A DNA stretch of 64,000 bases from Candidatus Latescibacterota bacterium (GTDB taxonomy: Bacteria; Latescibacterota; UBA2968). Location of the stretch: NCBI GenBank assembly GCA_965205975.1, contig OZ242195.1, positions 576,001-640,000 of the forward strand, in the 5' to 3' direction. The translations under genes were made by a program, and so were the position numbers. Below the pieces are notes generated by a model. That model worked only from the letters and a program-made list of their open reading frames with translations, had not been told where the DNA came from and made no database searches. Positions 58,831 to 59,154 of this stretch are shown here, piece by piece. How positions within the stretch are numbered: the first letter of the stretch is position 1; every line of letters starts with the position of its first letter.

Positions 58831-58835
58831 TTTAT

Positions 58836-59134
58836 CAAATAGCCCGTAAAACCCACAGCCTTCAGGCGTGGGTCGCATGGCGAAGGGCTTCCTTTTTTAG
58901 CTTTAGCGTATATGAACTTGCCATATCGCCCTTGTGTGAGTATATTGCAATTTAGGTATGAGGTTCTGCACAAAATGATACCGCCCGTGTAGGTAAAACC
59001 TGGGGGTCATCTCCTATTTGGGATGCTTTCACCAGTGAACAAGATACATTGCTTTGCCCATTGGTCTAGGACGATGTACCAAGGCGGGGTTAATCGCCGA
59101 GAAGCCCAACTCGTTCACGGTTGGGAATCGTCAC
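58836..59134 (+). mobile_element. Non-autonomous IS200/IS605-family miniature element (no tnpA/tnpB)
   Basis: TTTAT immediately upstream. Left hairpin ACCCAC..GCC-ttca-GGC-GTGGGT. Right hairpin GAAG-CCCAAC..GTTGGG..TCAC. No target duplication. Excision restores a coherent gene junction. Confidence 0.8.
58918..58946 (+). promoter_or_regulatory. Sigma70-like promoter inside the miniature element
   Basis: TTGCCA-N17-TATATT. Confidence 0.55.
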
Positions 59135-59154
59135 CGCTTGAACTCCTTTACTTT
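58953..59154 (+). ncRNA. Putative omega/reRNA-like transcript (scaffold plus flank-derived guide); boundaries approximate
   Basis: About 180 nt without a long ORF and with self-complementary segments, between the promoter and the right-end TCAC. Inferred by analogy to TnpB reRNAs. Confidence 0.45.

Follow-up and report, generated by a model that had tools for sequence, protein, structure and literature searches.

A gene-less IS200/IS605 element with a predicted internal promoter and omegaRNA-like RNA in a Candidatus Latescibacterota genome

The element and the history of its insertion site

The window analysed here is a stretch of 64,000 nucleotides from a Candidatus Latescibacterota genome (G000; assembly GCA_965205975.1, contig OZ242195.1, positions 576,001 to 640,000). 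Two host genes on the minus strand, encoding an IdsA-like polyprenyl diphosphate synthase (57784..58830) and a DEAH-box helicase (59131..61599), flank a 299-bp gene-less, PATE-like element of the IS200/IS605 group (58836..59134, plus strand). The host sequence TTTAT that precedes the element (58831..58835, plus strand; core TTAT) corresponds to the target motif and TAM, and its minus strand holds the helicase's original stop. Within the left-end region (58836..58929, plus strand), which shares 94% identity over 94–95 nt with the left end of a tnpB-only element (L026), the left guide G_L AAAA (58848..58851, plus strand) fits TTAT under the IS608 rule and is followed by a left subterminal hairpin (58852..58872, plus strand), a putative TnpA site whose DNA fold gives a z of -2.55 against shuffles. 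The right end (59101..59134, plus strand) comprises the guide G_R GAAG (59101–59104), a hairpin (59105–59125) that taken alone folds no better than shuffles (z -0.25), and the cleavage motif TCAC (59131–59134). The palindromes are subterminal, inverted terminal repeats are absent, no target duplication is present at either side, and the element contains no transposase ORF or other protein gene; a small ORF in its interior is not conserved between copies. An initial annotation of this DNA had described the same motif, hairpins, tetramers and missing duplication and transposase, and each was found where it had placed them.

The insertion has left both neighbouring proteins unchanged, and the element is in this respect an ordinary selfish insertion. 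The helicase still ends in KEFKR in the filled state; its stop codon, a TGA, is supplied by the element's right end. An in-frame upstream ATG (58878) offered by the element to the prenyl synthase would add 16 residues, and it is not conserved in G006 and G012. Both flanking genes lie on the minus strand, and the window copy points away from their transcription. Farther along the window (61775–63999), a frame that by eye resembles a TonB-dependent receptor is split into two pieces of 491 and 252 aa, probably by a frameshift near 62500.

When 41 genomes were searched with the element plus 500 bp of flank at either end, 20 loci at this site were recovered. The element is present in four (G000, G005, G006 and G012), 14 are empty by 299–300 bases, with 14–15 nt between the anchors as against 314 in the window, and two are too divergent for the anchors. 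The empty junction that the initial annotation had reconstructed, with the helicase again ending in KEFKR, occurs letter for letter in G002 (L008). The junction motif of the 14 empty alleles is TTTAT in ten, TTTAG in two, TTTAC in one and CTCAT in one, and the T-run is one base shorter in four of them. Reads bear out the expected junction as well: the empty joint (a skip of 299) stands beside the filled form in both of the two non-RNA runs, a pattern that mixed strains and excision fit equally. The proposed borders, and the identification of a protein-free IS200/IS605 element, are thus upheld by concordant evidence from the 14 empty relatives, independent copies, ends common to tnpB and tnpA+tnpB elements and guide/target covariation.

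On a tree of 2.8 kb of flank from 17 genomes the filled genomes do not form one clade (p-AU 0.0002; the trait itself defined the groups, and the tree is blurred by recombination), and two lineages of the element are inserted at this one base, the window copy and that of L002, L003 and L004. The copies of G005, G006 and G012 are 97–99% alike on flanks that are 92–95% alike; the G000 copy is only 82–84% like them, and its RNA is 97% like a copy elsewhere in G016. Because two lineages share one base and the filled genomes are not a clade, either insertion happened here more than once or copies have moved laterally or been converted. Homing would explain this history; equally good fits are a hotspot for TnpA and repeated precise loss accompanied by conversion. 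Identical tracts around the shared site measure 30–122 nt in filled pairs, a length that some empty pairs reach as well, and so give no sign of co-conversion of the flanks. Nor is there significant evidence of escape mutations at the TAM and seed in the empty alleles: five of 12 columns vary, and 11.7% of windows vary as much.

Related copies, end rules and candidate protein partners

The initial annotation had proposed looking in the genome for further copies and for tnpA or tnpB elements with the same ends; these exist in relatives, and G000 itself has one full copy only, with no second found, and no Y1 transposase. Five further copies of 244–330 bp lie at other loci in four relatives, and full copies per genome are few (0–2). 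All five follow TTTAT or CTTAT and end in TCAC, as had been foreseen for copies preceded by TTTAT or TTAT. At the five corresponding sites G000 is exactly empty at one, empty with one base changed at another, carries a different insert at a third and could not be placed at two.

The element shares its ends with both tnpB and tnpA+tnpB elements of the genus, and G003, G008, G010, G014 and G016 have tnpA+tnpB elements whose ends are of the same style. In IS608 each hairpin has on its 5' side a tetramer that base-pairs with the cleavage tetramer (PMC5934647). When 47 rows were scanned for this rule, taking the best of three offsets, it held at all three positions in 29 of the 30 rows judged by eye to be true left ends versus 0 of the 17 other rows. 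Six guide/target combinations were seen (AAAA/TTAT, AAAG/TTAC, GAAG/TCAC, CAAG/TGAC, AATC/TTAG and AAGT/TTAA), and the window element's right end, GAAG/TCAC, fits the rule.

No Y1 transposase (TnpA) was found in G000, a genome 98% complete, so the window copy is probably parked at present. PF01797 was matched in 13 of 20 relatives in the genus, some of the matches being remnants or RAYT-like genes. For TnpB, G000 has eight matches, among them three intact proteins of 374 aa with D-E-D motifs (by eye). The tails nearest to the window RNA in the P3 loop and terminal letters belong to 380-aa TnpBs in G006 and G019 (L064, L077), not in G000; the three 374-aa TnpBs of G000 are of the same wider family. 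Gene-less derivatives have arisen repeatedly, as in L038 (393 bp, a tnpB start fused to a tnpB end) and L124 (about 120 bp, ends only). Two truncated tnpB elements lie elsewhere in G000, at C1:696791 (minus strand) and C1:4797097 (plus strand); in the former a TnpB start is fused to a NUDIX-like frame of 317 aa (domain name by eye).

The interior: promoter, RNA and the P1 domain

The initial annotation was right in calling the element non-autonomous and in its borders, and was incomplete in that it missed a promoter and an omegaRNA-like RNA in the interior. A sigma-70-type promoter, TTGCCA-17-TATATT (58918..58946, plus strand), retains 10–11 of 12 consensus letters in all nine copies of the subfamily, one such site being expected by chance in the window region alone. 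Its boxes are kept in 9/9 copies while the spacer varies, and it ends 5–13 nt before a hairpin domain with a conserved internal loop, P1 (58954..59001, plus strand), which in the window starts 7 nt after the -10 box. A covarying hairpin, P2 (59008..59025, plus strand), comes next, then a long-range pairing strand (59035..59040, plus strand) and the hairpins P3 and P4 (59061..59098, plus strand), which the 3' ends of the genus's tnpB elements share in the same register. One option for the long-range strand is pairing of G(-98)A(-97) with the terminal TC, the arrangement of the ISDra2 pseudoknot; in the other, its six bases pair with the loop of the right hairpin (59113–59118). Beyond the element, the right flank (59135..59150, plus strand; antisense to the 3' end of the helicase gene) is the predicted guide segment, its length taken from ISDra2; a search of G000 for TAM-adjacent guide targets found none beyond an 8-nt match.

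As a single sequence, the 184 nt from the promoter-proximal hairpin to TCAC fold no better than shuffles. The evidence for a structured RNA comes from comparison. Across nine copies that are 76–97% alike, a structure of 39 pairs has 97.7% of its cells paired, with double changes at 16 of the 39, and it beats all 500 shuffles (0/500) and all slid controls, the copies being kin. Over the last 110 nt the copies can be aligned, without loss of register, to the ends of seven tnpB elements: in seven tnpB tails and six minis, 97.4% of cells are paired and 9 of 18 pairs show double changes. In 13/13 rows the G at -97/-98 is invariant and able to pair with C(-3), matching the ISDra2 omegaRNA, in which -105G pairs with C(-3) (PMC10097598). 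This candidate ISDra2-like terminal pseudoknot would consist of two pairs, kept in 13/13 rows and showing no double changes, and the rival 6-bp pairing, to the loop of the hairpin, shows covariation in one lineage. We read the interior as a predicted promoter followed by a covarying RNA of about 180 nt, of which the 3' 100 nt or so would be omegaRNA-like, with the right flank as putative guide.

A profile HMM built from 15 tnpB elements agrees for the 3' part, matching all eight minis over their last 50–75 nt only, which is largely the transposon end itself; the same profile matched none of nine 5' parts (0/9). An origin of P1 and P2 from tnpB coding DNA, suggested by eye, was rejected on those 0/9 matches and on local scores that lie within the shuffles. 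A model of the 5' part found nothing in tnpB or tnpA loci among the 29 searched, and model R1 gave 11 strong matches in 53 genomes, none of them a parent with a window-type RNA behind tnpB. Pattern scans returned 12 genome, 0 viral and 2 metagenome stretches, with L090/L098 due to chance. Neither the element nor any of eight related loci reached the gathering score of an Rfam covariance model (HEARO, IS605-orfB, sot, c4 and others), and a BLAST search of plasmids gave one 25-nt chance match only.

RNA contigs 95–96% like the element, from two metatranscriptome runs of one study, cover 58963/58976 to 59134 at depths of 86 and 72, with no cover at 58911–58957 and a depth of about 4 on the flanks. 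They come from a sister copy at another locus, in the spacer of the glnA promoter, and the contig runs on through glnA. Such coverage is a weak hint of transcription from the internal promoter: the data are contigs of flat depth from two runs of a single study, and the depth may be that of glnA. At the sister copy itself (G000:C1:2411034 region, L138; runs X15 and X16), the element's promoter may now drive glnA.

P1 was searched for beyond the window with models R2 and R3 and with pattern scans. It is found in 14 of 151 genomes and in four of the 46 genera of the phylum, three of them besides the window's genus. It occurs in a second gene-less family in G006, in G119, G146, G150, G091 and G133, and in four viral contigs; no match was found in tnpB elements of the genus, and in G000 model R3 finds the window copy only, with no P1 in the rRNA leaders. 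In one viral pattern scan with 14 matches, the three above 28 bits all have an IS200/IS605 right end 188–207 nt downstream, and the other 11 have none (0/11) and were judged chance, one of these, the weakly scoring L160/L172, still being in the P1 table. Chance explains 5/5 and 5/8 matches of two other viral scans, and a further one gave 0 matches. Over 15 copies P1 has 96.7% of cells paired and double changes at 8 of 12 pairs (0/500 shuffles), the rows having been picked for likeness to the model. A right end lies downstream of 21 of 25 P1 loci, a contig end cuts one and three have none; this table was corrected by eye (the L200 match lies in dnaA, and the end at L023 is at +133). At none of the 25 loci is P1 followed by tnpB or preceded by a tnpB end.

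Judged by the boxA consensus of PMC13753749 (as given in its text), 13 of the 16 loci that do not belong to the window's subfamily have a boxA-like word in the 25 nt preceding P1; for loci whose detection did not rely on the word the figure is 12 of 15, against a chance expectation of about 0.3% per locus. None of the 9 subfamily copies, the window copy included, has one. P1 precedes omegaRNA-like ends of several unrelated families. One such case is a 396-bp gene-less element between hrcA and grpE in G006 (L063:1375–1770), which belongs to a second TnpB family with other ends and a target ending in CCT; the same promoter and P1 are joined there to that family's 3' end, and the element is absent from this site in the other 20 genomes of the genus.

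Several P1 loci have further features. Promoter, boxA and P1 stand directly before dnaA (L200, about 1500; G091) and before an HD-domain gene (L201, about 1500; G133), each time with no right end. In a viral contig a CRISPR-like array of 28-nt repeats comes immediately after a P1-bearing gene-less element (L162:565–1072). The P1-bearing element of L161 is inserted in a tnpB remnant, so its guide would derive from tnpB DNA. A weak P1-like hairpin with no right end (L160:701–744) lies beside a tRNA cluster on a 412-kb phage contig. In L032 (G019) a hairpin-rich stretch lies between promoter and boxA, about 110 nt before P1; it has no Rfam match, and we take it to recall c4/ash leaders.

A candidate guide-RNA gene for TnpB made elsewhere

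A PATE with a standalone omegaRNA is a known kind of element that has already been published (PMC10055086, PMC10691335). PATEs were first defined in Haloquadratum walsbyi (PMC3119063). The window element shares with them, as their text describes them, near-terminal palindromes, strain-specific insertions, a length too short for a transposase and the absence of inverted terminal repeats and target duplication; unlike those PATEs, described there as DNA repeats, it has a low copy number and an RNA cargo. In Geobacillus stearothermophilus, PATEs with no protein gene, IS200/IS605 ends and TAM/TEM motifs as here are said to 'often encode omegaRNAs' that need TnpB in trans, and cutting of the empty allele by TnpB loaded in trans was shown for ISGst elements (Meers et al., PMC10055086). 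The dedicated promoter and 5' domain, with boxA in distant copies, set the present family apart from these PATEs as described in the paper's text. The standalone omegaRNAs that OMEGA systems contain act in trans, and their role is called unknown (PMC10691335, main text). Like the window element, they are mobilised with neither effector nor transposase, the effector lying elsewhere in the genome; unlike them, the present elements share a P1 domain among unrelated TnpB families, and function in trans, shown there, would have to be presumed here. With IS608 and ISDra2 the element has in common guide tetramers that pair with cleavage tetramers, a G about 100 nt upstream that here may pair with C(-3) and a tetraloop at about -20 (PMC5934647, PMC10097598, in the parts consulted). 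Unlike these, it has no tnpA or tnpB, and its omegaRNA-like part overlaps no ORF. The text consulted of a 2026 review (PMC13565253) has nothing further on standalone omegaRNAs, and the literature search found no paper linking boxA, TnpB and NusB, or TnpB, antitermination and IS605, or Latescibacterota and TnpB. P1 with its boxA link is the new part, having no match in Rfam or in the literature searched (main texts).

The explanation that we consider probable, taken with all its steps, is that of a non-autonomous IS200/IS605 element in which tnpB has been replaced by a self-contained guide-RNA gene for TnpB made elsewhere. The element entered 3' of TTTAT with no duplication, as the scarless empty site shows, and end anatomy suggests that a Y1 TnpA acting in trans would move it by peel-and-paste, reading G_L/C_L and G_R/C_R. 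The internal promoter would then make an RNA of about 180 nt plus the right flank, a step for which the RNA contigs offer partial support. The 3' 100 nt or so may adopt an omegaRNA fold and be taken up by a TnpB of the 374–380-aa family with shared ends, the flank serving as guide. The predicted target of such a complex, TAM plus flank, is the empty allele; once it had been cut, a filled copy used as repair template would bring the element back or spread it. TnpB processes its own mRNA at the 5' side (PMC10278001, in the text consulted), and we would guess that P1 replaces this protein-dependent 5' processing, whether by stabilising the 5' end or by forming, together with the boxA found ahead of it in most distant copies, part of an antitermination leader. 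TnpB binding, cutting and the function of P1 are in this account predictions, and covariation in the RNA may be inherited from a functional ancestor. Against the guide-RNA explanation stand the lack of TnpA, the single full copy and the lack of a guide target in G000, and the fact that the nearest TnpB tails lie outside that genome.

A rival explanation is a plain PATE moved by TnpA in trans, whose RNA scaffold is a decaying leftover that guides nothing; gene-less derivatives do arise repeatedly (L038, L124), and neither TnpA nor a guide target is present in G000. We regard this as unlikely, since a decaying scaffold would hardly keep 97.7% of its pairs, with double changes, in copies only 76–97% alike, or keep both promoter boxes while the spacer drifts, and the RNA contigs begin after the promoter. 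It is similarly improbable that the RNA is made and folded and serves something other than TnpB cutting, whether promoter, (boxA) and P1 provide host genes with a portable, processive promoter or the RNA has another partner, or a nuclease-dead one. That P1 has no match in tnpB elements and precedes omegaRNA-like ends of unrelated families would accord with such a role, as would P1 with no right end before dnaA and the HD-domain gene, and the sister copy in the glnA promoter spacer with its contig through glnA. Yet the right end is kept at 21/25 P1 loci (checked by eye), the 3' core retains TnpB-type pairs, the insertion sites have no common gene class and the window copy is directed away from its neighbours' transcription. 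That the interior helices are single-stranded DNA structures for transposition, as might be read from the G-T pairs on the top strand, the one TnpA uses, and from the two end hairpins, which are DNA signals, is very hard to credit given a 120-bp element of the second family (L124) that moves with ends only, the conserved promoter 5–13 nt before P1 and the RNA contigs.

Beyond the guide-RNA explanation for the window element, a broader and more tentative possibility, which we hold to be rather doubtful, is that promoter, boxA and P1 form a widespread undescribed expression module for guide RNAs that recruits Nus-type antitermination, provides a protected 5' domain and has been swapped onto omegaRNAs of unrelated TnpB families. 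Gene-less guide cassettes would then be a distinct maintained class, homing between strains with a borrowed TnpB and occasionally acting as a host-gene promoter (glnA, dnaA). Through its defined ends, natural empty alleles, promoter and candidate TnpA and TnpB partners, the family makes the role of standalone omegaRNAs directly testable, and a 5' domain evolved to express TnpB guides with no tnpB mRNA could help express engineered guides.
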